A DNA stretch of 64,000 bases. Source: a virus. The translations under genes were made by a program, and so were the position numbers. The stretch spans positions 9,970-73,969 of the IMG/VR virus record IMGVR_UViG_3300029194_000183, one strand, 5' to 3'. Below, piece by piece: positions 9,943-56,978 of the stretch. Below the pieces are notes generated by a model that saw only the letters and a program-made list of their open reading frames with translations, did no database searches and had not been told where the DNA came from. Position 1 is the first letter of the stretch, and the number at the start of each line of letters is the position of its first letter.

Positions 9943-10084
9943 TGCGTCATCCTCCTTGGGGTAGTCGTATAATGCCGCATGTATGGCTGAATAGCAAGTT
10001 CTGTCGCCCAGATAAATCGGCATATTACCGACAAACTATCTGCCTGACAGAACGCCTGAATTGCAGCATATATGACAAATGTAA

Positions 10085-41015: not shown

Positions 41016-41300
41016 TCAGTGTGCGTTCCGGATGCACCATTCGATGGCGTGTCCGGCATCCGAGAAGACCTCATCCGAAATCTTCAGCAGTTCCAGCCGG
41101 CACTCGATCGATGAAAGCCCTTCCTTGGGGTCCTCAGCGAATCCGTAAACCGCAGCCTCCACGCTGCCCTTCCAGTTCGTTTTGGCAACCAGAACCCGGT
41201 CGCCAAACTGCAGGATGCTGTCGTTGCAGGGACTGAGCAGGTCGTAGTAGCTCTCGATGCTGATGCTGTGTTCCGGGAAGTTGTTCAGATGCTTCTTCAT
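41016..41300 (-). CDS. Hypothetical early protein
   Basis: RBS GGAGG precedes ATG MKKHLNN. Preceded by cassette R2. Confidence 0.45.
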   Translation of the reverse strand: MKKHLNNFPEHSISIESYYDLLSPCNDSILQFGDRVLVAKTNWKGSVEAAVYGFAEDPKEGLSSIECRLELLKISDEVFSDAGHAIEWCIRNAH

Positions 41301-44138: not shown

Positions 44139-44387
44139 ATGAAAAAGACCATCAGCGAGATTGAAAGCATCATCGAGGACCGCATTGCAGAGCTTGAAGA
44201 AGAATACGAGCTGGACATTTTCGACCGCAACGACATTCGGGAAGAAGAATACCGCAAGGGCGGTTGGAAACACGACCCCTTCCCCGAAGAACTGGAGGAG
44301 GAAGAGGACGAGGAAGAAGAATGGCATTACATGAGCCTTGAGCAGCAGCTCTACGAAGTCGGCATGAGCATGCGGGATTTCCTTTAA
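44139..44387 (+). CDS. Hypothetical acidic protein (82 aa), the only plus-strand gene in the early region
   Basis: GGAGG RBS precedes ATG MKKTISEIESIIEDRIAELEEEYELD...EELEEEEDEEEEWHYM. Followed by a hairpin terminator. Confidence 0.45.
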   Translation: MKKTISEIESIIEDRIAELEEEYELDIFDRNDIREEEYRKGGWKHDPFPEELEEEEDEEEEWHYMSLEQQLYEVGMSMRDFL

Positions 44388-44545: not shown

Positions 44546-44635
44546 CTGGGAAAGGGTTCTCGACGATCCGAGGCCCCCACCAGCCCACAAGCCAGCCCCT
44601 CCTGCCTTGGCAGAAGGGGCCGTTTTCTTTATTCG
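44545..44635 (+). ncRNA. Candidate ~90-nt small RNA (orphan promoter to intrinsic terminator)
   Basis: The predicted TSS lies about 7 nt after TAATAT. The terminator is cccctcctgcc-tt-ggcagaagggg followed by ccgttttctttattc. There is no ORF with an RBS in between. Confidence 0.25.
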
Positions 44636-45000
44636 GGCTGTGTGCCGTCGCTGGTTTGGATGGCTGCGAGTCCCGATGCGGTGCGAACGAAAAGTTCCGG
44701 ATTCCAGAACCGTTTCCTGAACCTGTCCATGAGTTCCGGCGACAAGTCCGTGAAGTCTTCCTCACCCACCCCGCAGAGGAAGAAGCTACCTCGGATCGGC
44801 TGTTTCAGTTCCCGGATATACCGGCTGAACAGCTTATCCGTAAACAGTCCGTTGTCATCCGTGACCAGGGCGACCGGTTCCGGCCACGGGTATGTCGCCG
44901 TGATGCAGTCGCAGTCCAGCACCTTATAGTATTCTTCCAGCGTGGGCTGGATATCGATCTCCTTCGGATGTTCCATCGGCTCGACCAAAAGCACCTTCAT
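44629..45000 (-). CDS. DUF3846-like protein
   Basis: MKVLLVEPMEHPKEIDIQPTLEEYYKVLDCDCITATYPWPEPVALVTDDNGLFTDK...GSFFLCGVGEEDFTDLS matches the DUF3846 pattern. ATGA overlap with the upstream gene. Confidence 0.5.
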   Translation of the reverse strand: MKVLLVEPMEHPKEIDIQPTLEEYYKVLDCDCITATYPWPEPVALVTDDNGLFTDKLFSRYIRELKQPIRGSFFLCGVGEEDFTDLSPELMDRFRKRFWNPELFVRTASGLAAIQTSDGTQPE

Positions 45001-45456
45001 TCGACCCACCCCGCTTTCACGATTGCCCAGTCGGTCAGCGGTGTTGCTTCTCCAAGAAAGTCTTCCATCGCTTCGACCGTACCGCAGGTGTTGCACACCA
45101 TGATCTCTGCGTAGCGGCTGAGGGCTTGCTGCTGGTGGTCGTAACAGTCCGGCTCAGCGCCGCACCGTGGGCAACGTGGGCCCGCCTGTCGCGCCTTACC
45201 GAGGTGGTCGAGCGATTCCTTTACCTCGGTCTCGGACGCCACACGGTGGCAACTGTCCGCACCGTAGGCAACGTTCAGGCTGCCGCCTGTATCCCAGGAA
45301 ACCATCACATTGCCGGCATCGTCCACACCACGGCAGGTTCCCTGCGTGCCCAAGGCCGGTGCCTGGGCATCTTCCATTCGGTCCAGCACCACACGGCAGC
45401 CGACCGGGAACTGTGTCCGCAGAGTTTCTACGGTCTTTCTATCCGGAAATCTCATC
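44997..45456 (-). CDS. DUF4314-like protein with C-terminal Zn-ribbon
   Basis: FPVGCRVVLDRMEDAQAPALGTQGTCRGVDDAGNVMVSWDTGGSLNVAYGADS is the DUF4314 pattern, followed by CPRCG...CNTCG. The start overlaps the GGCT gene stop (ATGA), with an AAGGAGG RBS. Confidence 0.5.
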
Positions 45457-45934
45457 CCTGCACCTCCTTGATCATCTTCTCCGCGAGTTTCTTGTTGTTG
45501 GTACACTTCTTCAGTGCGCCCTCCAAGATGTGCATCGGGAAATGAAATGCCTTATAGCCATCGTGAAGGACTCGATAGTAGTACAGACTCGGCATTTTCT
45601 GCCCATAGTCGTGTTCCATGATATAGACCATGGCGGTGACGGTCATGGGCTCCGCATCCTTGCTCACCACCTCGACCGTCATATTTTCCTTGCGGTAGTA
45701 GTGCGGGAAGCCCTCATAGATGTCGAGGTTCTTCTCATCGCCAGCGGAGATTTCCCACACCAGGACCGGTGTGTTCTTTCCCTTGTTCGGCAGGATGGTC
45801 GCGCAGCCGTGGAAGGCCAGCTCCCAGTCTTCCAAAACAGCCTGGCCCACAATGCGGGCATCCGGGCACCGCTGTGCCATCTGCTCCACCGACAAGTTGC
45901 TGCCGTATGCGATGTAATACTTCTTTTCGTTCAT
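45452..45934 (-). CDS. GGCT/AIG2-like gamma-glutamyl cyclotransferase family protein (copy 1)
   Basis: YYIAYGSNL hallmark, then PVLVWEISAGDEKNLDIYEGFPHYY with the catalytic-Glu motif. Preceded by cassette R7. Confidence 0.7.
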   Translation of the reverse strand: MNEKKYYIAYGSNLSVEQMAQRCPDARIVGQAVLEDWELAFHGCATILPNKGKNTPVLVWEISAGDEKNLDIYEGFPHYYRKENMTVEVVSKDAEPMTVTAMVYIMEHDYGQKMPSLYYYRVLHDGYKAFHFPMHILEGALKKCTNNKKLAEKMIKEVQG

Positions 45935-45944
45935 AGTCGCTTGC

Positions 45945-46045
45945 TCCTTTCGTTTCCGCTGTTGTCTGGCGGTATGCTATATATGCCTCTGTTTTGCCCG
46001 AATAGCAAGGCCAATGTGCATCATATCCTGCACAATGATTTCCTC
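45945..46045 (-). promoter_or_regulatory. Promoter/leader cassette copy R7 (TTGCTA-N19-TATATA; more divergent)
   Basis: Minus strand reads attggccTTGCTAttcgggcaaaacagaggcaTATATAgcataccgccagacaacagcggaaacgaaaggagc. Confidence 0.4.
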
Positions 46046-46066
46046 ACAGGATCGGCAAAATTGTAC

Positions 46067-46608
46067 TCAGTCGATTTCTTTGAGGAACTCCACCGCTGCC
46101 GCCTTTCCGATGCTGGAAGACAGCCCACTGTGCAATGTATCTGTCGGGAATCCCCACTCCGTATACCCGTCTGCCAATAAGTCGAAGTACTCATGGCTGG
46201 GGCAGCCGAGCTGCCTTTCTTCGTGTAAGATGTATGCCATACAGGTTTTCAGCTTCTTCATCCGATGCCCATCCAGATTCCAGACGGGAAGCTGGAACTG
46301 CTTCTTGTAATAGTACCGAGGGCAGCCCTCATACCGATCCAGCAGCAGTTCATCAAACTCGGAAAGCAGCCATACCACAGCTGGGACGCTTTCATTGGCA
46401 TCCTGCTCGATGGTGGCGTAGCACCCAGTCTTGCTTTTCTTGAACAGGAGTCGGTATCCGTAGATTTCGGTAACACCGACCGGCACCGCATAGGGGCATC
46501 TGTGCCCCATCCGCTCCATGTCAAGGTTGCTGCCGTAGGCAAGATAGTACCGGGACGGCTTTCTGCTGATCCCACCCTTGTCGAACCGGAAGTGATCAAT
46601 CACCGACC
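46067..46608 (-). CDS. GGCT/AIG2-like cyclotransferase family protein (copy 2); start approximate (probable GTG)
   Basis: SRYYLAYGSNLDMERMGHRCPYAVPVG...PAVVWLLSEFDELLLDRYEGCPRYYY. The upstream part of the ORF overlaps the small gene 46596–46826. Confidence 0.6.
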
Positions 46609-46826
46609 TCACCGCCTTCCGCTGCGGAAAAGTCCACGCCGTCAAAGTCCTCAGCTTCCAGAACGATCTGTCCGTTGTGCCACCAGTCGCTGACCGCCTG
46701 GACGGCCTCATCCATCGTGGGTTCCTTGATCTCAGATTCGTTGACCTCGACCACCCGTTTGAGGGTCTCGGTGATGACCACCCGGAACGTTCTGCCGGGT
46801 GCGGTTTCTCTGGTTTCATTTTTCAT
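46596..46826 (-). CDS. Hypothetical small acidic protein (76 aa)
   Basis: Strong RBS GAAGGAGG precedes ATG MKNETRETAP. Sits between the amidoligase and GGCT copy 2. Confidence 0.4.
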   Translation of the reverse strand: MKNETRETAPGRTFRVVITETLKRVVEVNESEIKEPTMDEAVQAVSDWWHNGQIVLEAEDFDGVDFSAAEGGEVGD

Positions 46827-46896
46827 GGCGTATCGCCCTCCTTCTACCGCCTAAAGGGCGGTTGCCCGCCCGATAGGTGCCCGTGCAAGTCGGCGC

Positions 46897-47832
46897 TTAT
46901 GCGTTGCGCCAGCTTGCGTTGCCCTCCATATTCCGCAGAAGGATCTCCCGTGCTGTTTTGAACTCGTCCCCGATGAAACCCAGCCGAAGCATCCAGCACC
47001 GCATTGCGTATTTCTCGTTGTCAGTCTGCTGGGGCTTGGGGCTTGCGGTCTTCACCATCTTGGCAAGCTGGCTCATTGCGAGGCAAAGCTGGATGTAGGC
47101 TTTCAGCTCACCGGCGTGCAGTCCGTTCTGCTTGCCGTCGCTGGGGTCGGCAAACTGGAAAAGCCGGAATTCAATCGTGCCCTTGGTGAAGGTGGCGTGG
47201 AGGTTCAGCATATGGTATCGGCTTTCATTGTAATGTGCCGTTCTGCCGTAGTCTGCGTGGTTGCCGGCGTACCAGATGTCGGCAAGCTCAGTCATGGTCG
47301 TCGGCTTTCTCTTGTTCAGCTGGTCAAGGAATCGGGGGTCGACCACTCGGCAGTACTGTCCGGTTCTGCCTGCATCGATGCGAATCGCTCTGCCGATCTG
47401 TTCTTCGTGGGCGGCCATGATGTTGACCAGATTCCGCAGGGTCTTGGGGGTGTGGCTACCCTTGCCGATGTGGATGTGAACGCCGCATCCCCGGCTGGGG
47501 CTGGACTTTGCGCCAGCCTTGCGGAGCAGTCGGATGATTGCCTGCAAGGTCTCGATGTCCTCGTAGGTAAGGATGGGGGTCACCATCTCGCACTTTTCAG
47601 CTTCCGGTCCGTGGATGCTGATGTCTCGCTGGAATTTCCAAACCCTGCCCTGCTGGTCCTTGCAAGCCCAGCTCATGTACCCGTACTCGCCGGCTGCGTA
47701 CCATGCGGTCGTTCCGAAGAACTCGGCAACCTTTCTGGCGGCTTTCTCGCGGGTGATGTTGTTCATCTCAACCTCGACCCCGATGGTCTGCATCTTCATG
47801 GCTTCGATCTGCTCTCTGGTCTTATCGTTCAT
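46897..47832 (-). CDS. Amidoligase_2-family protein (glutamine-synthetase/GCS2-like fold), putative
   Basis: IGVEVEMNN...CEMVTPIL...GCGVHIHIG show the E-x-E and H-x-H metal/ATP-site-like motifs. RBS AAAGGAG precedes ATG MNDKTREQ. Preceded by cassette R8. Confidence 0.6.
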   Translation of the reverse strand: MNDKTREQIEAMKMQTIGVEVEMNNITREKAARKVAEFFGTTAWYAAGEYGYMSWACKDQQGRVWKFQRDISIHGPEAEKCEMVTPILTYEDIETLQAIIRLLRKAGAKSSPSRGCGVHIHIGKGSHTPKTLRNLVNIMAAHEEQIGRAIRIDAGRTGQYCRVVDPRFLDQLNKRKPTTMTELADIWYAGNHADYGRTAHYNESRYHMLNLHATFTKGTIEFRLFQFADPSDGKQNGLHAGELKAYIQLCLAMSQLAKMVKTASPKPQQTDNEKYAMRCWMLRLGFIGDEFKTAREILLRNMEGNASWRNA

Positions 47833-47849
47833 GGTGTTTATCTCCTTTT

Positions 47850-47945
47850 GTCTTGTTCTGTTCCCCTTGCGGTATGTGCATATTACCGTCATGTGGGGAG
47901 GATAGCAAGGCCATAAAGGGTCAAATAATCACCGATCATTCAAGG
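47850..47945 (-). promoter_or_regulatory. Promoter/leader cassette copy R8 (TTGCTA-N17-TAATAT)
   Basis: Minus strand reads tgtacacgatctttgccttgaatgatcggtgattatttgaccctttatggccTTGCTAtcctccccacatgacggTAATATgcacataccgcaagggg. Confidence 0.5.
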
Positions 47946-48063
47946 CAAAGATCGTGTACATTATGGCAAAAAACACACTTGATACTGTACATTTTCAGAG
48001 TTAATATCGGTACAATGGAAGAAGCTCTCTCTTATCCGGCGGTCCCCATAAGGGGTCAGGAGC

Positions 48064-49215
48064 TTACGCTCCCGCCTCCTGTGCCTGGGGTGCGCCGTCT
48101 GCCCCACAGTCGGGCTGTGTGGGGGCTTCCGCTGCCGCTTCGGCCGTTTCCTCGGCGGCAGAAACGCCGCCGTGTGCCGCCTGTTTTGCGGCTTTCAGGG
48201 CATCTCGCTTAGCCTTTTCCTTAACCCGGAACTTTTCGGCATCTTCCTCGGTGCGGAATGCCGCATGACCGGAAAGGTTCTGCATCAGGAGTTTGCGGAT
48301 GGTCTTGTGTTCATCTCCGTTCAGACCCAGTCGGATCAGCCAGATGCGGAGTGCGTACTTCTCATTGGCATCGTTGATGGTCTTTGCCTGGATTCGCTTC
48401 TGAGCGATTGCCATCCGGTTCATGGCGGCGCAGAGTTCCGTGTAGGCACGGACCTTCTCCTGCGTCAGCGGACCGGCAAAAGCCAGGCTGATCTTCTCCG
48501 CCGTGATCTGGATGCCGGTCATGCCGGTGGTACCGGCACCCAGGCGGTATTCTTCCAGCTCATCCAGCATTTCGCTCACCGTATGGGGCGTTGCCTGTTC
48601 CAGTGCGTCCAGAAGTCCCTGCGACACCGTGAAGTTCGTACCCATCGCTTTGTTCAGCAGAGGGCCTCGGCTGTACATGAGGTTCAGGAAATTCCGCAGG
48701 CTCTGGGCGGTATGCCCGGACATCGGCAGGCTGATGGTCAGCTCATCCACATCCTGCAAGGTCGGCTGTTCGGTCGGAGCAGGTGCCTCATCCGCATCGG
48801 TGTCATTCACAGTGTCCATCGGCTTGTTCTCGTCCACCGGTTCCTGAGCTTCCGGGGATTCCACGGCAGTTGTGTCCGGTTCCTCGGTGGGCTGGATATC
48901 CTCGGTGATGTCCACGGTCTCATCCGACCCTTCGCACTCCGATTCCGAGCTCTCCTCGCAGGCGGTTTCGGTTTCCGAGGTCTCCGGGGTCTCCGCGCCT
49001 TCCTCACGGATAATGCCCTCGTCCAGCAGCGTCCGGATGATCTCCGGCGCAGCGTTATCTTCGATCACAAGCGTTCCCTCCTTTTCTACTGTGTAACTGC
49101 CGACGATGTAAGCGCAGCGCGGCATGAAAGTGTACCGGGAATGAAGCCCGGTCAACTCCATCAGGCGGCTTACCAGAACCTTGCGGTCATCAATATTCAG
49201 TGCGTACTTTTTCAT
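48064..49215 (-). CDS. Amidoligase-paralog protein with acidic N-terminal region (possibly non-catalytic)
   Basis: The C-terminal 200 aa (SGHTAQSLRNFLNLMYS...NEKYALRIWLIRLGLNGDEHKTIRKLLMQNLSGHAAFR) align with the C-terminal half of 46897–47832 (GSHTPKTLRNLVNIMAA...NEKYAMRCWMLRLGFIGDEFKTAREILLRNMEGNASWR). It lacks the N-terminal E-x-E region. Preceded by cassette R9. Confidence 0.45.
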   Translation of the reverse strand: MKKYALNIDDRKVLVSRLMELTGLHSRYTFMPRCAYIVGSYTVEKEGTLVIEDNAAPEIIRTLLDEGIIREEGAETPETSETETACEESSESECEGSDETVDITEDIQPTEEPDTTAVESPEAQEPVDENKPMDTVNDTDADEAPAPTEQPTLQDVDELTISLPMSGHTAQSLRNFLNLMYSRGPLLNKAMGTNFTVSQGLLDALEQATPHTVSEMLDELEEYRLGAGTTGMTGIQITAEKISLAFAGPLTQEKVRAYTELCAAMNRMAIAQKRIQAKTINDANEKYALRIWLIRLGLNGDEHKTIRKLLMQNLSGHAAFRTEEDAEKFRVKEKAKRDALKAAKQAAHGGVSAAEETAEAAAEAPTQPDCGADGAPQAQEAGA

Positions 49216-49234
49216 GGCTTTGTGCCCCTTTCTT

Positions 49235-49335
49235 TGTTTTCGGTAGCACATATATCGCTCTGAATCGATGAAATAGCAAGGCCATTTCTCGACATTCTTC
49301 ATATTCGACCTTTTACACGATCCGTACAAAACACG
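49235..49335 (-). promoter_or_regulatory. Promoter/leader cassette copy R9 (TTGCTA-N19-TATATG; divergent)
   Basis: Minus strand reads ggatcgtgtaaaaggtcgaatatgaagaatgtcgagaaatggccTTGCTAtttcatcgattcagagcgaTATATGtgctaccg. Confidence 0.4.
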
Positions 49336-49419
49336 ACTGTGCAAGATCATCCGATATGTACGCCCACGGTATCACGGGGTAGCCTTTACCTCGTAATACA
49401 GTGGGCCATTTTATTGGTT

Positions 49420-50238
49420 TCAGCCGACTCTTGCTTCCAGCGCAGCGATGCGCTGCTCAAACTCAGCCGTCTTATTTTCCAGAGCTTCCAGACGCTCGGC
49501 CTCGGTCAGGGGCTTTTTCTCCTCGTCAAGGATCAGGTAGCGTTCCATGACGTAACCGGGAATGGTCTCATAAGTCACAGCGCACCAGCCATCTTCCTGC
49601 CCGATCACGTCCAGCCGGGCACCGTTGGGAATCCAGGCAAGACGGTCAGCGGTTCTTTCGGGAGCCTGCCGCAGACTCAATCTTCCGCCCGTAACGGTTG
49701 CCTTGCAATGAACTGCCAGCATATTGACCTTTTCCATCTCTACCTTCTCCTCTCGATTACTTTTATAGTTGATGCCTTTCAGCCGGCCGCCGAACTTCCA
49801 CCTGCCCAGAACTGAGTCACGGTGGATGCTGTTTCCTTCCACGCTGGTGGAGCAATGGGTGATCTCCAGCGGATGCACTCTTGTGATCACGCCCACATGG
49901 TAGTAGTCCCGCAGGTCTCCGGTACAGTTTACACCTCCCGACTTGTACCGGTCCGGCAAACTGTAGCTGCTGTCGCCGGGGTTCCGGGCTTTGAATACGA
50001 TCTCACCCACGAACAAGTGTGCGGTTTTGAGTTTCACAAAGTCCGCCATCTGTTTCCGGGCTGCGTAGTTACTGCCGTGGTAGCCGTTCCAGCTTCCACC
50101 GGCTCTGCGGACTGCGCCGATGATAAGACCAATGCAGTCACAGGTACCATCCGTACCGCTGCCGCCGATGCGATAGTCTGGTTTCGTAGCACAGATGGTC
50201 TCGAGCTGCTCAAGAAAAGCAGTCAGGGTGATGCTCAC
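49420..50238 (-). CDS. NlpC/P60-like papain-fold cysteine peptidase with SH3b-like domain and C-terminal coiled coil
   Basis: GTDGTCDCIGLIIGAV carries the Cys nucleophile context, and ...YYHVGVITRVHPLEITHCS the His. The SH3b-like segment reads GGRLSLRQAPERTADRLAWIPNGARLDVIGQEDGWCAVTY. GTG start overlaps the MTase stop (GTGA). Confidence 0.5.
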   Translation of the reverse strand: MSITLTAFLEQLETICATKPDYRIGGSGTDGTCDCIGLIIGAVRRAGGSWNGYHGSNYAARKQMADFVKLKTAHLFVGEIVFKARNPGDSSYSLPDRYKSGGVNCTGDLRDYYHVGVITRVHPLEITHCSTSVEGNSIHRDSVLGRWKFGGRLKGINYKSNREEKVEMEKVNMLAVHCKATVTGGRLSLRQAPERTADRLAWIPNGARLDVIGQEDGWCAVTYETIPGYVMERYLILDEEKKPLTEAERLEALENKTAEFEQRIAALEARVG

Positions 50239-52583
50239 TCCGATTCACTCCCATTCTCAGGCGATCCGGCCACCCAGACGATGCCGGACAGTACAAAAAA
50301 GACACACGGCAGTGCGACACCATTGCCCCAGAGCTTATACTCTGCGGCATCCGAATACGGGTCTGCCAGCCATTTTCGGATCTGCTTTTCCGTCTTCGGC
50401 TTCTTGGCGTGGGTCACCAGTCTGCGGTGCGTTTCAAACACATCCTGCCAGAAAGCGATTTCATCCTCGGTGGGATTCTCAGTTTCGATGTCATGGCACC
50501 ACCAGTCCGGGAAACCCTGCAGCCGAGCGCACTCAGTCGGGGTCAGACGGCGAACCGTATAGGACACGGGGATCGGCTGTGCGTCCGGGTTATCGATGAC
50601 CAGCCGGTCATTAAAAGCGTCCTGCCCGTTGAAGCCGCTGGGATGCGCCCCGGTCGCCACCGTTCCCGACACGCCATCGTTCAGGTGCGGCACCGGCGCT
50701 ATGGTGGTGGGGTCTTTAAAGTCCCGGGCCATAAGGGTGGGAGATACATTCTCCTCGACCCTCATGAAGGAGCCGGTGGTCATGGCGTAAACATCTTCCG
50801 GTGCGCAGACTGCGTGACGGTCAGTGGCATCCAGCGTAAAGCAGACATCTTCGTTGATGCCGTCACCTTGCGGACCATTCTCGTCTTTGCGGCCGATCAT
50901 GTTGCCCTGCAGCACGAAGGTCTGCATCTGGTCGCTTCGGGTCGCCATGAGCGCACCGGACTTTCCATGCAGGTCGATCAGCTCATTGCGCTGATTCACA
51001 TGGAATGCCGTCACGTCATCCGGCTGCGCCACAAAGGTCTGCTGTTTCATTCCCGGTTGTGCAGACAGCGAACCCGCCGTCTCGCCCAGATTCCGGACTT
51101 CATCCCGCTGGTTCTGGGTAAAGGCTACTGCCGGAGCCCCGCCATGGGTGCAGGCCAGAGGCGGTGCCACCTGTTCGTCTACCGTGCAGTTCGACTTGCC
51201 TCCACCCTGATCCACGCAGACAACAGGTTCACAGATACACAGCCCACCCTGGTTACAGGTCGGGTCACCGCCGCTGCGATCAAGCGTCCGGGAAGTTTCC
51301 GCTTCATAGAATCCGCTGTGGGGGTTATCCGACATCATGGAATGGCTGGCCTTGGAGCAGACACCGTAGCACTTAGGCACGAACACGGTCTGGTCGTTGT
51401 TGCAGCCGAGGGTAGCAGATTTTTCCTCCTGCCAGATAGCACCTTTGCCGCCACCCTCACATCCAGAACGAATTTTCAGTGTGACTGCAGGTGAGTTTTC
51501 CACCTCTTTCCCGCTGTTTTCCACGCCATCCAGAACCAGCGGAACATTGCCGCCGCCCGTACCGCATCTACTGGTCAGAGTCTGTACCTTGCCATCCTTG
51601 GAAATTTTCACTCGACTGTCAGTCGGATGATTTTCCAAAGCGATGGCGGCAGGCACGACTCCGGCCCGGAGAGTGGGAGAACGTTCTTTCTCATATCCGA
51701 TGCTCCTCGCATTGGCGGAGTGTTCGGTGCAAAAACCTGCGGATTCCAAAACGCAAGGCGGGTGATGTGCCTCTGCACGGAGGGTGGAGGTCACCTCCTC
51801 GGTCACATCCATCCTCTCCCCGCCCTGATCGTTCAGGCAGATTCTTCCGCAGCAGCCTGCCGTTCCAGTGCCGCCTTCAGCACCGGAGGCAGCTCTTTGC
51901 CACGTACGGAAGCTCTCCGCAGAATACCCAGACACGCCTTCGGACTCAAATAATACTTTTGGAGCACCGTGGTCTGCAAAATCTGCGACAAGGTAGATGC
52001 GTTTTCTCCTTTGGGGTACGCCCCACCATTGAGCGTCAAGAACTCGATATGCGACGCTCCATCCGTCTCCCAGATAGTAATCTGCATCGGGCCAGCCTTT
52101 TTTGTCAGGCGCAGGCACCTCGGTGGACGGTTCCTTAACACCGATGACGGCCTCGAGGACTGCTTTGAAGTCCTGCCCTTTGTTGGACGAGAAGGCGCCT
52201 GGGACATTCTCCCATACGATAAATCTTGGTTTTGCTCCATTGGTCTTACACCTCATTTCCTTCACGATTCGAATCGCTTCATAGAACAGGCTGGACCGTG
52301 AACCATCCAGACCGTCTCTTTTACCGGCAATGGACATATCCTGACAAGGACTGCCAAAGGTGATGATATCCACCGGCGGCAAGTCTGAGCCGTTGATGGC
52401 GGACACATCCCCGTAGTGCTTCACCTCCGGCAGACGCTTGGTCGTGACCCGGATGGCGAAGGGTTCCACTTCGCTGCTCCACAGCGGCGTGATACAACCT
52501 GTCAGTAAACCGCCCAAAGGGAAACCCCCGGAGCCATCAAAGAGGCTGCCGAGGGTCAGTTGGATATTCGATTCGGTGCTCAT
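50235..52583 (-). CDS. DNA (cytosine-5)-methyltransferase with an expanded multi-module target-recognition region
   Basis: Motifs I FDGSGG, IV GSPCQDMSIAG, VI ENVPG, VIII QRRKRIY, IX RRLTPTECARLQGFPDWW, X GNGVALP. About 470 aa between motifs VIII and IX hold at least 6 segments of the form (S/T)(P)TL....G.GGG..P(L/V). Confidence 0.85.
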   Translation of the reverse strand: MSTESNIQLTLGSLFDGSGGFPLGGLLTGCITPLWSSEVEPFAIRVTTKRLPEVKHYGDVSAINGSDLPPVDIITFGSPCQDMSIAGKRDGLDGSRSSLFYEAIRIVKEMRCKTNGAKPRFIVWENVPGAFSSNKGQDFKAVLEAVIGVKEPSTEVPAPDKKGWPDADYYLGDGWSVAYRVLDAQWWGVPQRRKRIYLVADFADHGAPKVLFESEGVSGYSAESFRTWQRAASGAEGGTGTAGCCGRICLNDQGGERMDVTEEVTSTLRAEAHHPPCVLESAGFCTEHSANARSIGYEKERSPTLRAGVVPAAIALENHPTDSRVKISKDGKVQTLTSRCGTGGGNVPLVLDGVENSGKEVENSPAVTLKIRSGCEGGGKGAIWQEEKSATLGCNNDQTVFVPKCYGVCSKASHSMMSDNPHSGFYEAETSRTLDRSGGDPTCNQGGLCICEPVVCVDQGGGKSNCTVDEQVAPPLACTHGGAPAVAFTQNQRDEVRNLGETAGSLSAQPGMKQQTFVAQPDDVTAFHVNQRNELIDLHGKSGALMATRSDQMQTFVLQGNMIGRKDENGPQGDGINEDVCFTLDATDRHAVCAPEDVYAMTTGSFMRVEENVSPTLMARDFKDPTTIAPVPHLNDGVSGTVATGAHPSGFNGQDAFNDRLVIDNPDAQPIPVSYTVRRLTPTECARLQGFPDWWCHDIETENPTEDEIAFWQDVFETHRRLVTHAKKPKTEKQIRKWLADPYSDAAEYKLWGNGVALPCVFFVLSGIVWVAGSPENGSESE

Positions 52584-53350
52584 ACAGCCTCCTCTCCGAG
52601 CATCTGCTCTTTTGCTTTCAGGTAGAAGTCCCTGGACACTTCAAATCCGTAGCTGTCACGTCCCAGTTCTCTGGCCGCCCGGAGCGTTGCACCGCTGCCG
52701 GCGCAAGGATCAATGACCACATCTCCGGGATCGGTAAAGATCTCGATCAGGCGTTTCAGCACGGACACCGGTTTCTGAGACGGATGGATCTTTGGATAGT
52801 CCTTGCCATCCCGTTTCCAGTCAAACCAGTTGAAGATCATGTGGGACTTGCCGTCTTCACCGACGTTGTTGAACTTCGGGAGCTTGCCCCGGTAGAGGAC
52901 CAGCGCATACTCCGTTGCACCCACGATCTTCATGTTGGCTTTCAAGACCTGCGGGCTGTAGTTCTTACAGAAGGTCAGCGGGATATAGTTCTTGAAGCCG
53001 TACTTCTCAGCTTCCGTGATGACCTTGGGGATCTGCTGGAACGCACAGAACACGATCATGCACGGTGCGCCCTTTTCCCCTTTCATGGGTTCTTTCTTCA
53101 GCAGCCGGTTACAGAAATGGAAATATTCTGCGATATTGAAAGTGAAGTCGGTGTTGAATGCCGCTTTCCGGGCCTTATCGCTCTCTCCATTCCGGTTATC
53201 TCCGTCTACATACCAATCCGGGCGGCTGGCGTAGAAGTCCGACCCGATGTTATACGGGATGTCGGCGATCACCAGCTGTGCCTTGGGGATGTTGTAGGAC
53301 TTGAAGTTCTGGAAGTTGTCATGGAACAGGACACATCTGGGTTCAGTCAT
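52580..53350 (-). CDS. DNA methyltransferase (N6-adenine/N4-cytosine class, DPPY-type)
   Basis: QLVIADIPYNIG motif IV variant; SAM-binding motif VIDPCAGSGATL near the C-terminus. RBS AGGAGG precedes ATG MTEPRCV. Confidence 0.75.
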   Translation of the reverse strand: MTEPRCVLFHDNFQNFKSYNIPKAQLVIADIPYNIGSDFYASRPDWYVDGDNRNGESDKARKAAFNTDFTFNIAEYFHFCNRLLKKEPMKGEKGAPCMIVFCAFQQIPKVITEAEKYGFKNYIPLTFCKNYSPQVLKANMKIVGATEYALVLYRGKLPKFNNVGEDGKSHMIFNWFDWKRDGKDYPKIHPSQKPVSVLKRLIEIFTDPGDVVIDPCAGSGATLRAARELGRDSYGFEVSRDFYLKAKEQMLGEEAV

Positions 53351-54611
53351 CTGCGCCCTCCTGTTCCGGCTGGAAGGACGCCACCTCATCGAACTTCAGC
53401 TTTTGACCGTCACGGAGGACATACACATCCTCGTAGCGACCTTCGCTGTGTTCGATATAGCGCTTGACGATAACATCCACGAACTTGGGGTCAAGCTCAA
53501 TGCCCCGGCACACCCGGTCAGTCTCCTCACAGGCGATCAAGGTCGAGCCGCTGCCGAGGAAGGGGTCAAGGACGATGCCGTTGGTCATGGTGGAGTTGCG
53601 GATGGGATAGCTCATCAGGCCGATGGGCTTCATAGTCGGGTGGTCCTTGTTTGCTTTGGGACGGTCGTACTCCCAGATGGTGGTCTGCTTACGGTCAGAG
53701 TACCACTGGTGCTTGCCCTTCAGTTTCCATCCATAGAGGCAGGGTTCATGCTGCCACTGATAGGGACTGCGACCCAGCACCAGAGCATTCTTTTTCCAGA
53801 TACAGCACCCGGACAGATAGAATCCCGCATCCTTGAATGCCTTTCGGAAATTCAGACCTTCCGTGTCGGCGTGGAAAATGTAGATGGAACCATCATCTGC
53901 CAGATGACCGTGCATCTGCTTGAACGCCGCCAGCAGGAACTCGTAGAATTCCGAGTCGCCCATGTTGTCGTTCAGGATCTTGCCAGCCGTTTCTTCCACG
54001 TCCACATTGTACGGGGGATCGGAAAGCACAAGGTTGGCCTTCACGCCGTCCATCAGGGTGTCGTAGCATTCGGCCTTGGTGGAATCGCCGCACAGAACTC
54101 TGTGCTTGCCCAGCATCCAGAGGTCGCCCGCTTTGGAAAAGCACGGCTGTTTCAGCTCGGACTCCACATCGAAGTCATCTTCTTTGACCTCTTTGTTGTG
54201 GACCTTGTTGAACAGCGTCTCGATCTCAGGCGGGTCAAAACCCGTCTTGCCCAGGTCGAAGTTGGATTCCTCGATGTCTTTGAGCAGGTCGGCCAGCAGG
54301 GTGTCATCCCATGCGCCCGTGATTTTGTTGAGCGCAATGTTCAGCGCCTTTTCTCTGGTCTTGTCGATGTCCACCACCGCACACGGAACTTCCGTGTAGC
54401 CCAGATCCATGGCAACGGTCAAACGCTGATGGCCGCCAATAATTGTCATGTCGGCATTGACCACCAGCGGGTCGGCAAACCCGAACTCCGTAATGGAGTT
54501 CTTAATCTTCTCGTACTCCTTATCCCCCGGCTTCAGTTTTTTCCGGGGATTGTATGCGGCCGGCTTGAGTACGGACACCGGCAGCATTTTCAGTTCAGCG
54601 GTTGCTTTCAT
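53343..54611 (-). CDS. ParB-like nuclease domain fused to an N6/N4 DNA methyltransferase
   Basis: The N-terminus LPVSVLKPAAYNPRKK...GGHQRLTVAMDLGYTEVPCAVVD is ParB/Srx-like. MTase motif IV is VLSDPPYNVD and motif I is LDPFLGSGSTLIACE. RBS GAAGGAGG. Confidence 0.8.
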   Translation of the reverse strand: MKATAELKMLPVSVLKPAAYNPRKKLKPGDKEYEKIKNSITEFGFADPLVVNADMTIIGGHQRLTVAMDLGYTEVPCAVVDIDKTREKALNIALNKITGAWDDTLLADLLKDIEESNFDLGKTGFDPPEIETLFNKVHNKEVKEDDFDVESELKQPCFSKAGDLWMLGKHRVLCGDSTKAECYDTLMDGVKANLVLSDPPYNVDVEETAGKILNDNMGDSEFYEFLLAAFKQMHGHLADDGSIYIFHADTEGLNFRKAFKDAGFYLSGCCIWKKNALVLGRSPYQWQHEPCLYGWKLKGKHQWYSDRKQTTIWEYDRPKANKDHPTMKPIGLMSYPIRNSTMTNGIVLDPFLGSGSTLIACEETDRVCRGIELDPKFVDVIVKRYIEHSEGRYEDVYVLRDGQKLKFDEVASFQPEQEGADD

Positions 54612-54622
54612 GTAGTCCTCCT

Positions 54623-54856
54623 TCACACGCACATGACCTCAGAGAACGGCACGAAAAAGGAGCCGAACTGAAAGCCCGACTCCAACTCATCGCTATCCCC
54701 GCCCATCTCCGACTGCGGCTTTTCCGTAATCGGATACCACTCCGGGTTCTCCCCGTTCATGGAGGCAAGGACCCTGTCCTCTGCATGATCGATCTCATGT
54801 ACGCAGATGCCCCCGGTGTTGAACATCGGGAACACGCCGATTGTCTTATTCTCCAT
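54623..54856 (-). CDS. Hypothetical small protein (77 aa)
   Basis: RBS AAAGGAG 9 nt before ATG MENKTIGVF. Confidence 0.35.
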   Translation of the reverse strand: MENKTIGVFPMFNTGGICVHEIDHAEDRVLASMNGENPEWYPITEKPQSEMGGDSDELESGFQFGSFFVPFSEVMCV

Positions 54857-55148
54857 CGCTATGTTCTCCTTTCGCCCTGCCCTTGTTGGCACAGGCACGG
54901 CTGCAATATTTTCTCGGAAGCCCGTACTGGTGACGGTAGGAAAACTCCCTGCCGCACACCGGGCAGACCTTTGACCGCACGGTCTTCCAGTTCTGCGGTC
55001 GCGGATGGGTGTTGTTCCACTTGGAGCGGCATTCCGGGGAGCAAAACTTTCGTGGTCTGCCCCGGTGGTTCGGAACGATGGCAGTTCCGCACTGCGGACA
55101 GAAGGCAAACGCCATGTCCTTGACCATTTCCGCTGTGTAATCCTGCAT
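54846..55148 (-). CDS. Zinc-ribbon protein (two CxxC-x15-CxxC units)
   Basis: CPQCG...CSPEC and CPVCG...CSRAC. Confidence 0.4.
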   Translation of the reverse strand: MQDYTAEMVKDMAFAFCPQCGTAIVPNHRGRPRKFCSPECRSKWNNTHPRPQNWKTVRSKVCPVCGREFSYRHQYGLPRKYCSRACANKGRAKGEHSDGE

Positions 55149-55547
55149 CTGTCCTCACCTGCCCCTCATTTTTCGCCGTTTCTGTGGCGTTTTCAGTGGA
55201 AAATCTCAAAAAGCATACGAAAAGAGGCAAAGTGAAAATCGGACCTGCCCCGCCGGGTTACATTGTTTTTGCGGCGTCCGATTTTCGACTGCCTCTGTTC
55301 CTCCCGGAACAAGCTAAAGCGTATGAAAAGTTCTGTATTGCAAGGTTTTTCACACGCTTTGGTTCGTTTCGGGGGAAAACAAAAGGCACCGGAGCGTTCA
55401 CCCCGATGCCCTCATCTTCACCTTGTTCATTTTGCGCCGTTAATTTCGGGACCCCCGGCCTATGAATTTTGCGTTTTTTCACACGAAAGGGGCCACCGGT
55501 CTCCGTGTGACTTCACTGTAGAGAAGTGACCCCGGCCCCGGCGGGGG

Positions 55548-55907
55548 TCAGTATTGGTACACCGGGTTGATGTCTTTGGTCAGAGTCTTGCGGTCATGGC
55601 ATTGCTTACAAAGCGGCTGCCAGTTAGCATCGTCCCAGAAAAGTCTGGGATCGCCACGGTGCGGTGTGATGTGGTCCACCACGGTGGCTTTCGTGTATTT
55701 TCCCTGCCTCATGCACTCGGCGCAGAGCGGATGGGCTTGGAGATACTGCTTGCTTATTTTTTGCCACTGTCGTGTGTAGCCCCGCTTTCCGGCAGAGCGC
55801 GTCACTTCCGGGTGCAGCGGCAGGTGCTTCTCACAGTAGAGGATGCCGGGTTCAACCAGCTCCGGGCAGCCGGAGTGTCGGCATGGCACCTTGGGTCTGC
55901 GGGGCAC
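55548..55907 (-). CDS. HNH endonuclease
   Basis: CRHSGCPELV...YCEKHL...HPLCAECMRQGKYTKATVVDHITPHRGDPRLFWDDANWQPLCKQCHDRKT shows the HNH/Zn-finger motif with catalytic His and Asn. Confidence 0.75.
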   Translation of the reverse strand: MPRRPKVPCRHSGCPELVEPGILYCEKHLPLHPEVTRSAGKRGYTRQWQKISKQYLQAHPLCAECMRQGKYTKATVVDHITPHRGDPRLFWDDANWQPLCKQCHDRKTLTKDINPVYQY

Positions 55908-55910
55908 GGG

Positions 55911-56978
55911 TCATTCCTCCCACGGCAGACCGGGCTTGCCGAAGTGACCGTAGGCACTGACCTTGTTGTAGTCAACGTCCAGCAGACCCAGACGCTTGAT
56001 GATGCCCTGCGGAGTCAGGTCGTAGCTGTCACGGACGTAGGCTTCGATGAACTCCGGTGCTTCATGCTCCGTACCGAAGCACTCCACCGACACGCCCACC
56101 GGCTGTACCACGCCGATGGCGTAGGCCAACTGGACTTCACACTTGTCAGCGTAGCCGGCCTGTACGATGTCCTTGGCGATCTTCCGCGCCATATATGCTG
56201 CGGAGCGATCCACCTTGGTGGGGTCCTTGCCGGACAGTGCGCCACCGCCCATTCGACCGATGCCGCCGTAAGTATCACACGCCAGCTTCCGACCGGTCAC
56301 ACCGCAGTCGGCATAACTGCCGCCCAGCACGAACCGGCCGGTGGGATTGACGAGCTTCTGGAAGTCACCGTCCAGTCCGTACTCACAGGCGGCAAGCACC
56401 ATCATGGATTCGATAATGTGGCGGAAGTCGCTGACCTCCACGTCCGGGCTGTGCTGCACGGAGCAGAGGAACGTAGTGATTCGGCCGGTGTCGTAGTCGT
56501 AGCTGACCTGCGCCTTGGCATCTGCCCGGAACATCTTGGACGGATGGTTCTTCAGCAGTTGCAGGAACTTGGTGGCGACCATGTAGGGGATCGGCATCTG
56601 TTCGGCGGTCTCGTTGGTGGCGTAGCCGTACATGATGCCCTGGTCACCGGCACCGCCCTTATCCACGCCCAGTGCAATATCCGGCGACTGCATATCGACC
56701 AGGATGCCGATGCGGAGCAGTTCCCGGAAATCAAAGCCCATCTTGTCTGCACCGATACGGGTGATGACCTCATGGACGATCTGCTGGTAGTTGGGCTGGT
56801 AATCGGTGGTGACCTCGCCAGCGATAAAGAGCTGGCTGCGTTTCAGCAGACACTCGGTTGCCACACGGGCGTTCTTGTCGTGCTGGAGGATGTCGGTCAC
56901 AATGGCATCTGCGATCTGGTCGCAGATCTTGTCCGGGTGGCCGTTGCTGACCTGCTCACAGGTGATAATCTTGCTCAT
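55911..56978 (-). CDS. metK: S-adenosylmethionine synthetase (methionine adenosyltransferase) homolog, phage-encoded
   Basis: GHPDKICDQIADA, GAGDQGIMYGYATNE, GGGALSGKDPTKVDRSAAYMARKIAKDIV and DTYGG are MetK signature motifs. 355 aa, slightly shorter than bacterial MetK. Confidence 0.9.
   Translation of the reverse strand: MSKIITCEQVSNGHPDKICDQIADAIVTDILQHDKNARVATECLLKRSQLFIAGEVTTDYQPNYQQIVHEVITRIGADKMGFDFRELLRIGILVDMQSPDIALGVDKGGAGDQGIMYGYATNETAEQMPIPYMVATKFLQLLKNHPSKMFRADAKAQVSYDYDTGRITTFLCSVQHSPDVEVSDFRHIIESMMVLAACEYGLDGDFQKLVNPTGRFVLGGSYADCGVTGRKLACDTYGGIGRMGGGALSGKDPTKVDRSAAYMARKIAKDIVQAGYADKCEVQLAYAIGVVQPVGVSVECFGTEHEAPEFIEAYVRDSYDLTPQGIIKRLGLLDVDYNKVSAYGHFGKPGLPWEE

Follow-up and report, generated by a model that had tools for sequence, protein, structure and literature searches.

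Amidoligase modules in phages

Phages have been known since 2009 to pair an amidoligase with a gamma-glutamyl cyclotransferase (GGCT) (Iyer et al. 2009, as cited in PMC5498523, PMC11318856 and PMC11253131), and descriptions of the arrangement also cover the LM41 and Terrisporobacter prophages. The same literature agrees with the original prediction for the present DNA, that such neighbourhoods are known from comparative genomics but have no established substrate. The locus analysed here therefore adds one member to a known module.

Where phage cassettes of this kind have been interpreted, it has been as cell-wall modification (PMC5498523, PMC11253131, PMC11318856 and PMC10580990, each of which cites Iyer et al. 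2009); published work proposes this role, not counter-defence. In phiEco32-type cassettes, peptidoglycan precursors would be modified, leading to superinfection exclusion: stem peptides would gain an unusual amino acid or peptide link from the ligase, GGCT and peptidases would trim the product, and the altered receptors would block other phages. The phiEco32-type cassette, however, has three further components, an ATP-grasp ligase, a GAT-II amidotransferase and another active amidoligase, and none of them is among the scanned ORFs, which argues against this interpretation here.

The locus and its core enzymes

The window is a stretch of 64,000 nucleotides from IMG/VR virus record IMGVR_UViG_3300029194_000183, and the phage is a Heliusvirales-like temperate siphovirus, a prophage of gut Clostridia. 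Eight genes, all on the minus strand, lie between the replication and methylation genes (an island of MetK and three methyltransferases) and the terminase. They encode a protein with an NlpC/P60 fold and SH3b domain, a dead amidoligase paralog, an Amidoligase_2 enzyme, a DpnD/PcfM-like protein, two GGCTs, a DUF4314 protein with a Zn-ribbon and a DUF3846 protein. The families originally named are present on this strand with Pfam scores far beyond chance, but that inventory omitted the DpnD/PcfM gene between the amidoligase and the first GGCT; coordinates given here follow refined gene starts, which replace the earlier ones. Of the five to eight amide-bond enzymes first proposed, what remains is a single ligase with one or two cyclotransferases. 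As a whole, the locus is best explained as a two-enzyme gamma-glutamyl-amide module within a DNA-protection and establishment island, an explanation to which we give an even chance of being right.

The first core component is the amidoligase (46897..47832, minus strand, 311 aa; Pfam Amidoligase_2, 1.4e-53), predicted to be an ATP-dependent carboxylate-amine ligase of GS/GCL fold. Its supposedly intact motifs, E20-x-E22 and H119-x-H121, are real and are accompanied by E221-x-R223; a comparison of 63 diverse family members shows each of them conserved in at least 90%, and the E/H/R motif residues are more than 95% conserved among close relatives. Overall identity is 65-88% across phages whose TerL proteins are 58-98% identical. 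No solved structure for Amidoligase_2 is detectable by sequence or profile; the predicted structure (pLDDT 95.9) is nearest to glutamate-cysteine ligases, followed by glutamine synthetases and PafA/Dop. The amidoligases of Salinivibrio phage CW02 and Pseudomonas phage tf, two phages listed with the phiEco32-type cassette, have the same fold, a point in favour of the cell-wall interpretation.

The second core component is GGCT1 (46067..46603, minus strand, 178 aa; Pfam GGACT 1.1e-07 and AIG2_2 3.2e-06; PHROG 2520, 1.3e-34), a gamma-glutamyl cyclotransferase whose GTG start falls within the final bases of the DpnD gene. A second paralog, GGCT2 (45452..45934, minus strand, 160 aa; Pfam GGACT, 5.5e-12), is 37% identical to it and has a counterpart second copy in 54 of 118 relatives. 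Profile searches thus place these two adjacent proteins in GGACT/AIG2_2 families, both above Pfam cut-offs. GGCT1 has YGSNL and LDRYEG motifs, while GGCT2 aligns end to end with its closest solved relative, human GGCT (2pn7, E=1.3e-6), its YGSNL and Glu74 matching the YGSNL and catalytic Glu98 of the human enzyme; GGCT1 shares these motifs. Judged by these motifs both proteins keep the catalytic apparatus, as had been claimed.

Proposed chemistry

The conserved core would form a cytoplasmic gamma-glutamyl-amide module of two enzymes. The Amidoligase_2 protein, having the fold of GS and Glu-Cys ligases, would use ATP to convert a glutamate-type carboxylate to an acyl-phosphate, and the activated carboxylate would combine with an amine to give a gamma-glutamyl-X amide, where X might be a small molecule, a peptide or an exposed amine. 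The adjacent GGCT, of which there are two paralogs here, would then cleave the amide by intramolecular cyclisation into 5-oxoproline and the free amine, so that the pair would install and remove a gamma-glutamyl group. That group might act as a transient tag, a protecting group or an intermediate in a gamma-glutamyl-cycle-like shunt. Such ligation and cyclotransferase cleavage is, we infer, rather probable, given family membership, intact motifs, fold, strict pairing, a dedicated promoter-like cassette and the lack of export signals, all eight proteins being free of hydrophobic and signal segments. Some other carboxylate, rather than glutamate, might serve as acyl donor. Ligase and GGCT acting on the same bond constitute a futile ATP-consuming cycle unless separated by time, substrate or an intervening step.

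For GGCT and GGACT enzymes to act, the alpha-amine of the gamma-glutamyl group must be free. The D-isoglutamate of stem peptides is N-acylated and so has no free alpha-amine, which counts against modification of the cell wall. Another reading is metabolic takeover, in which glutamate and ATP yield gamma-Glu-X and then 5-oxoproline and X, draining glutamate and ATP or conditioning the host through 5-oxoproline. The closest structural relatives of the amidoligase are small-molecule Glu-Cys ligases, and the closest solved relative of GGCT2, the human enzyme, has gamma-glutamyl amino acids as its substrates; GCL and GGCT together produce 5-oxoproline in the eukaryotic gamma-glutamyl cycle. Both phage enzymes are also predicted to be soluble and cytoplasmic. 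Yet a pure futile cycle has no obvious benefit for a phage about to package its DNA, and metabolic takeover, which we regard as unlikely, would leave unexplained why methyltransferases, the dead paralog and DUF4314 constantly accompany the pair, as well as the two divergent GGCTs of some lineages.

Conservation and genomic setting

In a survey of 118 related loci, the predicted co-conservation holds strictly for amidoligase and GGCT, which lie no more than 3 kb apart at every one (118/118; median gap 282 nt), but fails for the NlpC/P60-SH3b gene, present in only the 8 closest. The pair is also seen in ICE-like contexts outside the Heliusvirales (loci L094 and L097), one such setting adjoining an ADP-ribosylglycohydrolase.

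The NlpC/P60-SH3b gene (49420..50238, minus strand, 272 aa) encodes a predicted cysteine peptidase of NlpC/P60-CHAP fold, an SH3b domain and a C-terminal helix. The SH3b part of the original assignment stands (SH3_3, 8.2e-08); NlpC/P60 stands at fold level only, since the N-terminal domain has no Pfam match even at E=10 but the AlphaFold (AF2) model (pLDDT 81.7) agrees with it. That model matches cell-wall hydrolases combining CHAP or NlpC/P60 with SH3b, Foldseek matches being Ly7917, PlyGRCS, 4hpe, 7cfl and MepS, and Cys35, His114 and His128 are invariant among 30 homologues. A GTGA overlap joins the gene to the stop codon of the C5-methyltransferase gene, to which it is translationally coupled. 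A predicted peptidoglycan peptidase directly upstream in the window would suit modification of the cell wall, but its relatives at 55% identity lie between tail genes and holin, as expected of an endolysin family, and with its narrow distribution this excludes it from the proposed system. It is a displaced endolysin-type gene outside the conserved module. With the module placed among DNA-methylation and establishment genes, and in one ICE-like setting beside an ADP-ribosylglycohydrolase, we think a cell-wall role unlikely.

Pfam matches confirm the island beside the cluster (50235..56978, minus strand throughout): C5-MTase (50235-52583; 92/118 related loci), N4/N6-MTase (52580-53389), ParB-N6/N4-MTase (53343-54632; 107/118) and MetK (55911-56978). 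On the other side, just upstream of the terminase genes, is a small protein with nucleotide-modification-associated domain 4 (Nmad4; 41016..41300, minus strand; Pfam PF18756, 6.8e-20), which has its own cassette. Besides the two enzymes, the island contains MetK, three DNA methyltransferases, a Lar-like Zn ribbon, DpnD/PcfM, DUF3846, acidic small proteins and Nmad4.

This setting raises the question of DNA hypermodification, with ligase and GGCT working alongside methyltransferase-like enzymes and Nmad4 to build or trim an amino-acid-containing base before packaging. The module does lie between the MetK and methyltransferase block and the terminase, the ParB- and C5-MTases are frequent in related loci, and an Nmad4 domain occurs within the same block here and at the equivalent position in Streptococcus phage Javan105. 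The C5-MTase is also unusually long (782 aa, its Pfam domain in three stretches), and in viromes uncharacterised amidoligase genes are found together with those for thymidine hypermodification (PMC8989533). Nevertheless, none of the scanned ORFs encodes a 5-hmdU kinase, aGPT-pyrophosphorylase, dUMP hydroxymethylase, glycosylase or PLP/radical-SAM enzyme, the ligase-GGCT pair occurs with no MTase match at L094, L097 and L107, and the structural relatives of the amidoligase are amino-acid ligases. Hypermodification is accordingly highly improbable.

Since the island is otherwise devoted to protection and establishment of phage DNA, the most likely role of the gamma-glutamyl-amide module is counter-defence or host conditioning before packaging, rather than virion structure or lysis. 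The host-takeover or anti-defence role first suggested is plausible from context, through guilt by association only, and we put counter-defence or establishment below even odds. PADLOC models, which describe defence systems and not anti-defence proteins, matched none of 10 proteins (the eight genes and two downstream small proteins).

The dead paralog and accessory genes

The paralog AmiPar (48064..49215, minus strand, 383 aa) has no Pfam match, but its predicted relationship to the amidoligase is borne out by BLASTP (E=8e-21), PHROG 2443 (2.5e-38) and profile-profile comparison (hhalign, E=3e-31). Its C-terminal two-thirds are homologous to amidoligase residues 108-311, with ExE, HxH and ExR all replaced. 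The long acidic N-terminus described earlier proves to be an 89-aa linker (33 D/E, 2 K/R) behind an N-terminal domain of about 70 aa that is conserved and not acidic. AmiPar is found in 109/118 loci (92%).

The DUF4314 protein (44997..45455, minus strand, 152 aa; Pfam PF14192, 1.1e-25) has a C-terminal CxxC...CxxC zinc-ribbon extension whose similarity to Lar restriction-alleviation proteins is weak and below threshold (TIGR03655, E=0.0086). In 104/118 loci (88%) its gene lies no more than 3 kb from that of the amidoligase, and in most relatives it stands immediately 3' of the dead paralog. AmiPar and DUF4314 also occur in phages without amidoligase and GGCT (AmiPar without the enzyme in Javan105 and NatCom_11393), and they constitute a second module, separable from the enzymes and usually just upstream of them. 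With its catalytic motifs lost and this occurrence in enzyme-free phages, AmiPar is not simply a second ligase; AmiPar and DUF4314 are most likely a non-enzymatic binder or adaptor.

An active and inactive paralog pair resembles PafA/Dop, which suggests pupylation-like tagging: the ligase would join glutamate or a small protein to host or phage lysines through a gamma-glutamyl isopeptide, with the dead paralog as adaptor and DUF4314, small, conserved and directly 3' of it in most loci, as tag or target. DUF4314 has no conserved C-terminal Glu, Gln or Gly, though, the last residue in 116 distinct sequences being E (43), G (22), L (13), I (8) or others. The amidoligase matches small-molecule ligases better structurally than PafA/Dop, GGCTs are not known to act on intact proteins, and the paralog and DUF4314 are found together without the ligase. 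Protein tagging is decidedly unlikely.

Two further accessory genes are less widespread, those for the small acidic DpnD/PcfM-like protein (46596..46826, minus strand, 76 aa; Pfam PF14207, 5e-12; 54/118 loci) and the DUF3846 protein of the last transcription unit (44629..45000, minus strand, 123 aa; Pfam PF12957, 2.9e-23; 50/118 loci).

Promoter-like cassettes

Each gene had been credited with its own strong promoter, but three promoter-like cassettes serve the eight genes. The clearest, TTGCTA-N11-TGACGGTAATAT with conserved flanks (47861..47939, minus strand; repeat families D1-D3, alignment A2), lies upstream of the amidoligase, is conserved at 76 nt from the amidoligase start in about 58 related loci and heads the unit amidoligase-DpnD-GGCT1; the window contains 7 matches to its motif where 0 would be expected. 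Weaker variants (repeat family D5, alignment A2; both minus strand) precede the dead paralog (49241..49284) and GGCT2 (45970..46013). These conserved cassettes divide the region into three putative transcription units, the last of which, GGCT2-DUF4314-DUF3846, has ATGA start/stop overlaps coupling DUF4314 and DUF3846 each to the preceding gene.

A ligase and cyclotransferase pair

The region at 44629-50238, in which all genes lie on the minus strand, centres on an intact ligase of the glutamine synthetase (GS)/Glu-Cys ligase (GCL) fold and one or two intact gamma-glutamyl cyclotransferases (GGCTs), which are strictly co-inherited, soluble, placed behind conserved promoter-like cassettes and set inside a DNA-methylation/establishment island. 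The original prediction had described here a cluster of enzymes that make and break amide bonds, and every family it named was present in the Pfam search: Amidoligase_2 (46897-47832; 1.4e-53), GGACT/AIG2_2 in both GGCT1 (46067-46603; 1.1e-07) and GGCT2 (45452-45934; 5.5e-12), DUF4314 (44997-45455; 1.1e-25), DUF3846 (44629-45000; 2.9e-23) and, representing the NlpC/P60 protein, SH3_3 (49420-50238; 8.2e-08). A further gene, DpnD/PcfM (46596-46826; 5e-12), lies between the amidoligase and GGCT1 and was absent from the original list. With starts refined from sequence, the 272-residue NlpC/P60-SH3b protein (NlpC/SH3) has a GTG start that overlaps the stop codon of a C5 methyltransferase (MTase), GGCT1 has a GTG start overlapping the end of DpnD, and DUF4314 and DUF3846 each overlap the preceding gene through an ATGA start. 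No hydrophobic segment was found in any of the eight proteins, and sequence searches for solved relatives of DUF3846, DUF4314 and DpnD gave nothing meaningful.

The amidoligase scores 182.7 bits with Amidoligase_2 (PF12224), for which the cut-off is 22, and covers profile positions 2-244 of 245. Clustering at 50% identity leaves 4,373 representatives of this large family (E<=1e-3). In a diverse set of 63 of them, the motifs E20-x-E22, H119-x-H121 and E221-x-R223 each occur in 90% or more of the sequences. A solved relative was retrieved neither by the sequence alone nor by a profile of the 63 members. The AlphaFold model built from the same 63-member alignment (pLDDT 95.9, pTM 0.94) has the catalytic fold of glutamine synthetases and Glu-Cys ligases, and this fold points to glutamate gamma-carboxylate chemistry. 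Glu-Cys ligases, glutamine synthetases and PafA/Dop all activate the gamma-carboxylate of glutamate as an acyl phosphate, and it is mainly because these families of structural relatives do so that a gamma-glutamyl amide would be expected as the product. The publications that we found on Amidoligase_2 cite a 2009 prediction and report no biochemistry.

Both cyclotransferases exceed the Pfam cut-offs for GGACT (PF06094, 22.8 bits) and AIG2_2 (PF13772, 27 bits), with 46.7 and 29.6 bits for GGCT2 and 32.9 and 27.9 bits for GGCT1, and both match PHROG 2520 ‘gamma-glutamyl cyclotransferase’. The alignment with human GGCT takes in the full length of GGCT2 (E=1.3e-6), whose YGSNL and LDIYE74G fall on the human YGSNL and LDEQE98G, so that Glu74 occupies the column of the catalytic Glu98; the entry for the E98Q mutant, 3cry, confirms that column. 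GGCT1, with YGSNL and LDRYEG, shares 37% identity with GGCT2. Both proteins are predicted to be active.

In the scheme that these assignments suggest, the amidoligase would use ATP to link a gamma-glutamyl group to an amine X through an amide bond, and the cyclotransferase would free X again, the gamma-glutamyl group leaving as 5-oxoproline. Gamma-glutamyl ligation followed by cyclotransferase removal is probably the chemistry of the pair. A similar protecting-group logic is seen in butirosin biosynthesis, in which the ligase BtrJ puts a gamma-glutamyl group on an amine and the GGCT-fold enzyme BtrG later removes it as 5-oxoproline. BtrJ, however, is an ATP-grasp enzyme and not of the GS fold found here, and the butirosin pathway handles carrier-protein-bound intermediates in an antibiotic gene cluster. 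The Glu-Cys ligase and GGCT of the gamma-glutamyl cycle likewise have the same install-and-remove logic as that proposed for the present pair, which invites the alternative of a metabolic shunt. The amidoligase, though, is only 10-13% identical in sequence to GCLs, is shorter (311 aa against 354-729 aa) and has an extra C-terminal helical module shared with its paralog; unlike the cycle, moreover, the window supplies no glutathione synthetase or 5-oxoprolinase partner. We consider a shunt improbable.

Conservation of the neighbourhood

To measure conservation we took from IMG/VR and the GTDB species genomes 160 loci whose amidoligase is at least 65% identical to that of the window, placed the window proteins on them by tblastn, and counted over the 118 that have 3 kb or more of flanking sequence in both directions. 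Among the hosts are Blautia, Faecalibacterium, Clostridium, Ruminococcus and Oscillospiraceae. The conservation of neighbourhood that the original prediction had proposed as a check is borne out for the central pair, amidoligase and GGCT being adjacent in 118/118 loci, within 3 kb of each other and with a median gap of 282 nt. Also near the amidoligase are the paralog (109/118), the ParB-fused MTase (107/118), DUF4314 (104/118), the large terminase TerL (98/118) and the C5 MTase (92/118), while two GGCTs and DpnD are each found in 54/118, DUF3846 in 50/118 and NlpC/SH3 in 8/118. Most lineages have the order MTase(s), paralog, DUF4314, amidoligase, GGCT, small genes, terminase, and in the relatives the amidoligase is conserved to the same degree as the terminase.

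The enzyme pair also occurs in other company. In one locus (L094, 6203-10487, on a MAG contig labelled Bacteroidales) it is flanked by an ADP-ribosylglycohydrolase (2.7e-63) and an FtsK/SpoIIIE-type ATPase, which suggests an integrative conjugative-element setting, and in another (L097) its neighbours are an SNF2 helicase on one side and a LexA-like repressor/integrase on the other. Conversely, the paralog and DUF4314 are found together without amidoligase or GGCT, between methyltransferases and terminase, in Streptococcus phage Javan105 (L168, 3084-4477) and Oscillospiraceae phage NatCom_11393 (L170, 4039-4967). Since the enzyme pair and the paralog-DUF4314 pair each occur apart, we regard the region as two separable two-gene modules with lineage-specific accessories. 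In Javan105 the paralog and DUF4314 bear the label ‘virulence-related protein’, and DUF5049 and Nmad4 come next.

A predicted pseudoenzyme and its DUF4314 partner

The paralog (48064-49215) matches PHROG 2443 ‘amidoligase enzyme’, as does the amidoligase itself. BLASTP aligns its residues 161-321 with amidoligase residues 120-309 (E=8e-21), and profile-profile comparison, with the paralog set cleaned of true amidoligases, aligns 149-323 with 108-311 (E=3e-31). An apparent full-length homology (E=2e-96) was discarded; it rested on true amidoligases in the paralog set, and the cleaned set aligns significantly only over the C-terminal two-thirds. Homology of the N-terminal parts is suggested only by the common match to PHROG 2443. 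The search for paralog homologues returned only close relatives (76-99% identity), of no use for deep alignment.

Within the aligned region the paralog has ISLPM in place of HIHIG and SLAFAG in place of EFRLFQ. No E-x-E motif was found in its N-terminal domain, where the contaminated full-length alignment had set KYAL against EVEM. The paralog is, as judged from its sequence, a pseudoenzyme. It comprises a conserved N-terminal domain of about 70 residues, an 89-residue acidic linker (33 D/E, 2 K/R) and, at the C-terminus, the region homologous to the amidoligase. What its family conserves most strongly is a C-terminal N-x-KY-x2-R-x2-L-x-RLG-x2-G-x3-K-x2-R, common to paralog and amidoligase and lying past the end of the Pfam model; the module that the two have in common reads KYAxRxWLxRLGxxGxExKxxR.

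A ligase-like protein encoded near a small partner invites comparison with pupylation, in which DUF4314 would be a Pup-like protein tag. Dop is an active deamidase, whereas the paralog lacks catalytic residues, and the window has neither a Pup-like tag with a conserved C-terminus nor a proteasome context. DUF4314 has no conserved C-terminal Gln/Glu: among 116 distinct sequences the last residue is E in 43, G in 22, L in 13, I in 8 and others in the remainder. This variability rules out a Pup-like C-terminal signature, and Pup-like tagging by the system as a whole seems decidedly unlikely. In most relatives the DUF4314 domain stands alone (72-80 aa). That of the window lineage has gained a CxxC...CxxC zinc ribbon at about residues 94-131, which resembles Lar restriction-alleviation proteins weakly and below the cut-off (TIGR03655, E=0.0086).

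The NlpC/P60-SH3b protein

No Pfam family matched residues 1-158 of NlpC/SH3 even at E=10, NLPC_P60 (PF00877) included, and the N-terminal domain has no PHROG or NCBIfam match. As sequence profiles gave nothing, the fold was settled only by structure prediction. The AlphaFold model (pLDDT 81.7) is matched by Foldseek, with probability 1.00, to NlpC/P60 and CHAP hydrolases (4hpe, 7cfl, MepS 8xud, LytE 8i2e and Ly7917 5d74), at target-normalised TM of 0.58-0.71 for single-domain targets. Matches of the model include Ly7917, PlyGRCS, C. difficile CD630_03720 and Acd24020, MepS and LytE, which combine CHAP or NlpC/P60 with SH3b. In a set of 30 homologues C35, H114 and H128 never vary; there are 1,476 homologues in all, one of them named ‘DUF1287’. 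The gene of a 55%-identity homologue has tail-fibre genes on one side and a holin on the other. NlpC/SH3 is assigned to an endolysin family.

The NlpC/P60 peptidase of the original prediction therefore keeps its papain-like fold and Cys-His-His/polar triad, on the AlphaFold and Foldseek evidence, but not its membership of the module, given its presence in 8 of 118 loci and its holin-side homologues. For the cluster as a whole, the pairing of amidoligase and GGCT holds, while neither this protein nor the paralog takes part as an enzyme. NlpC/SH3, which combines an NlpC/P60-CHAP fold, an SH3b domain and a coiled coil, is here translationally coupled to a DNA methyltransferase, at a distance from the lysis genes proper of the phage (10185-12439). 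Across the eight closest relatives its identity is 74-94%, below the >95% of its neighbours.

Promoter-like cassettes

An element of 60-100 nt is repeated in ten copies between 40862 and 49284. It consists of an upstream box, ATGATCGTG, a core, TTGMTA-N11-TGACGGTAATAT, and then ACCGAAAGGG. The core has seven exact or near matches in the window where none is expected, all on the minus strand (40871, 41356, 42001, 42644, 43080, 43965 and 47880). Three copies of the cassette lie within the cluster, before the paralog, the amidoligase and GGCT2, those of the paralog and GGCT2 being weaker variants. In about 58 loci, several with amidoligases only 66-67% identical, the amidoligase copy keeps its distance of 76 nt.

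We read the cassette as a putative promoter because it is repeated, placed before start codons and conserved. Its hexamers are only moderate matches to the plain sigma-70 consensus, and a generic sigma-70 scan found no excess of sites (5 against 4.3 in shuffled sequence) and recovered only two cassettes. The original description of a ‘strong promoter cassette’ before each gene thus goes too far, since the match to consensus does not justify ‘strong’. An invariant TGACGG just before the -10-like hexamer suggests a dedicated regulator or sigma factor.

Downstream of the cluster, several small, mostly acidic proteins are each encoded behind a cassette of their own. Just upstream of the terminase genes, also behind their own cassettes, lie the genes of the Nmad4 (nucleotide-modification-associated domain 4) protein at 41016-41300, which has a counterpart at the equivalent position in Javan105, and of a DUF6900 protein at 41773-41967. 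The only plus-strand gene of the region (44139-44387) encodes 82 very acidic residues (30 D/E). An inverted cassette at about 44040-44140 would be its promoter; the gene converges on the DUF3846 operon, with which it shares a hairpin at 44604-44620.

Known systems and possible roles

The amidoligase/GGCT neighbourhood is already known: the module, widespread and conserved, was recognised years ago. Phage cassettes of amidoligase and GGCT were predicted to modify the cell wall or proteins by Iyer et al. 2009, as relayed in PMC5498523, PMC10580990, PMC11253131 and PMC11318856. The arrangement of two amidoligases followed by a GGCT is described for the phi13-alpha/epsilon prophages of Clostridium clostridioforme LM41 (PMC11318856) and for the active Terrisporobacter phage TPDSL_ph1 (PMC11253131, PP197246). 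These blocks match the window in having PHROG 2443 twice and PHROG 2520 once and in gene order (MTase, C5-MTase-like, short ‘amidoligase’ equivalent to the paralog, small gene, amidoligase, GGCT), and the TPDSL_ph1 amidoligase is 61% identical to that of the window. Both papers annotate the genes only and repeat the hypothesis made for phiEco32, with no remark that the first ‘amidoligase’ is apparently dead or pairs with DUF4314. In comparison the window lineage has an extra DpnD, a second GGCT, DUF3846 and the endolysin-type NlpC/P60 gene. Cultured relatives of this kind are at least as testable as the window locus, and a distant amidoligase is encoded by phages 031MP004 and 035JT001 of Bacillus subtilis, itself a tractable host. 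To these accounts the present analysis adds a two-gene core, the finding that the second ‘amidoligase’ is a predicted pseudoenzyme travelling with DUF4314, and the exclusion of the NlpC/P60 gene from the system.

The published hypothesis is modification of a cell-wall precursor for superinfection exclusion. It derives from the ‘peptidoglycan modification cassette’ of the phiEco32/RIO-1/LUZ24 type (Iyer et al. 2009; Hardies et al. 2013), the function of which, in the account of PMC5498523, is a prediction. Shared with the window are a GGCT and an enzyme of the Amidoligase_2 type, encoded together in a pre-late block of phage genes, and the CW02 and tf amidoligases share the fold of the window enzyme. 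However, that cassette comprises seven genes, among them an ATP-grasp ligase, a GCS2-type gamma-glutamyl amidoligase and a GAT-II amidotransferase; the scan of ORFs across the window found no ATP-grasp ligase, no GAT-II amidotransferase and no second active gamma-glutamyl amidoligase, the second ‘amidoligase’ here lacking all catalytic residues. The phiEco32-type cassette is also one of podoviruses of Proteobacteria, whereas the window module belongs to Clostridia siphoviruses and accompanies methyltransferases. Action on the cell wall is, on balance, unlikely.

The neighbouring genes are the reason for which we favour, tentatively, a role in counter-defence or host-conditioning. Upstream of the cluster, Pfam identifies a D5-type primase/helicase, MetK, a ParB-fused N6/N4 MTase, a second N6/N4 MTase and the 782-residue C5 MTase, the island from MetK to the C5 MTase spanning 50235-56978. 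Such surroundings might equally bring DNA hypermodification to mind, but no Pfam match to a 5-hmdU kinase, aGPT-pyrophosphorylase or dUMP hydroxymethylase was found in the scanned window ORFs, and we judge it very unlikely. A defence system was ruled out in turn by the absence of any match to PADLOC-DB 2.0 models at E<=0.01 among ten proteins, the eight of the cluster and two of the small downstream ones.

A more specific form of the counter-defence reading would have the pair reversibly gamma-glutamylate a macromolecule. The target would be lysines in a protein of the phage or of the host's defences, or else a DNA base that bears an amine and is made with the MTase and Nmad4 genes, and paralog and DUF4314 would serve as target-binding adaptor. 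We regard this as a long shot; if true, phage-host conflict would gain a new type of modification, carried by a highly prevalent human gut phage lineage. Whatever the amidoligase substrate, finding it would show what thousands of genes labelled ‘amidoligase enzyme’ do in phages and mobile elements, and would settle the 2009 prediction.

The surrounding prophage

Among the Pfam assignments are small (39832-40311) and large (38207-39832) terminase subunits, portal, ClpP-type protease, HK97-type capsid and tail proteins, a tape measure protein of 1,957 aa and an amidase/glucosaminidase lysin. The presence of terminase, portal, protease, capsid, tape measure and lysin genes rules out a conjugative element, first suggested by DUF3846, DUF4314 and DpnD/PcfM. 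The closest deposited phages are ‘Ca. Heliusvirales’ genomes from human faeces, an order widespread in the human gut (PMC11283538); that paper makes no mention of the genes of the amidoligase module.

Several other genes merit comment. The C5 cytosine MTase (50235-52583) is unusually long, and its Pfam domain falls in three stretches, implying large insertions; in relatives it often appears as two tblastn pieces. Directly upstream of the primase/helicase gene, a 229-residue protein (59874-60563) has a PemK/MazF toxin domain at its C-terminus. At the end of the prophage are four large serine recombinase genes with Resolvase and Recombinase domains (2129-4090, 6273-7487, 7477-8988 and 9001-10023), the last three contiguous and an AAA_25 ATPase (4100-5071) lying between the first and second. 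The tail region encodes two large proteins with unusual enzymatic domains, one of 1,654 aa (15894-20858) with a C-terminal CotH kinase domain and one of 872 aa (13133-15751) with a GDSL lipase/acylhydrolase domain.
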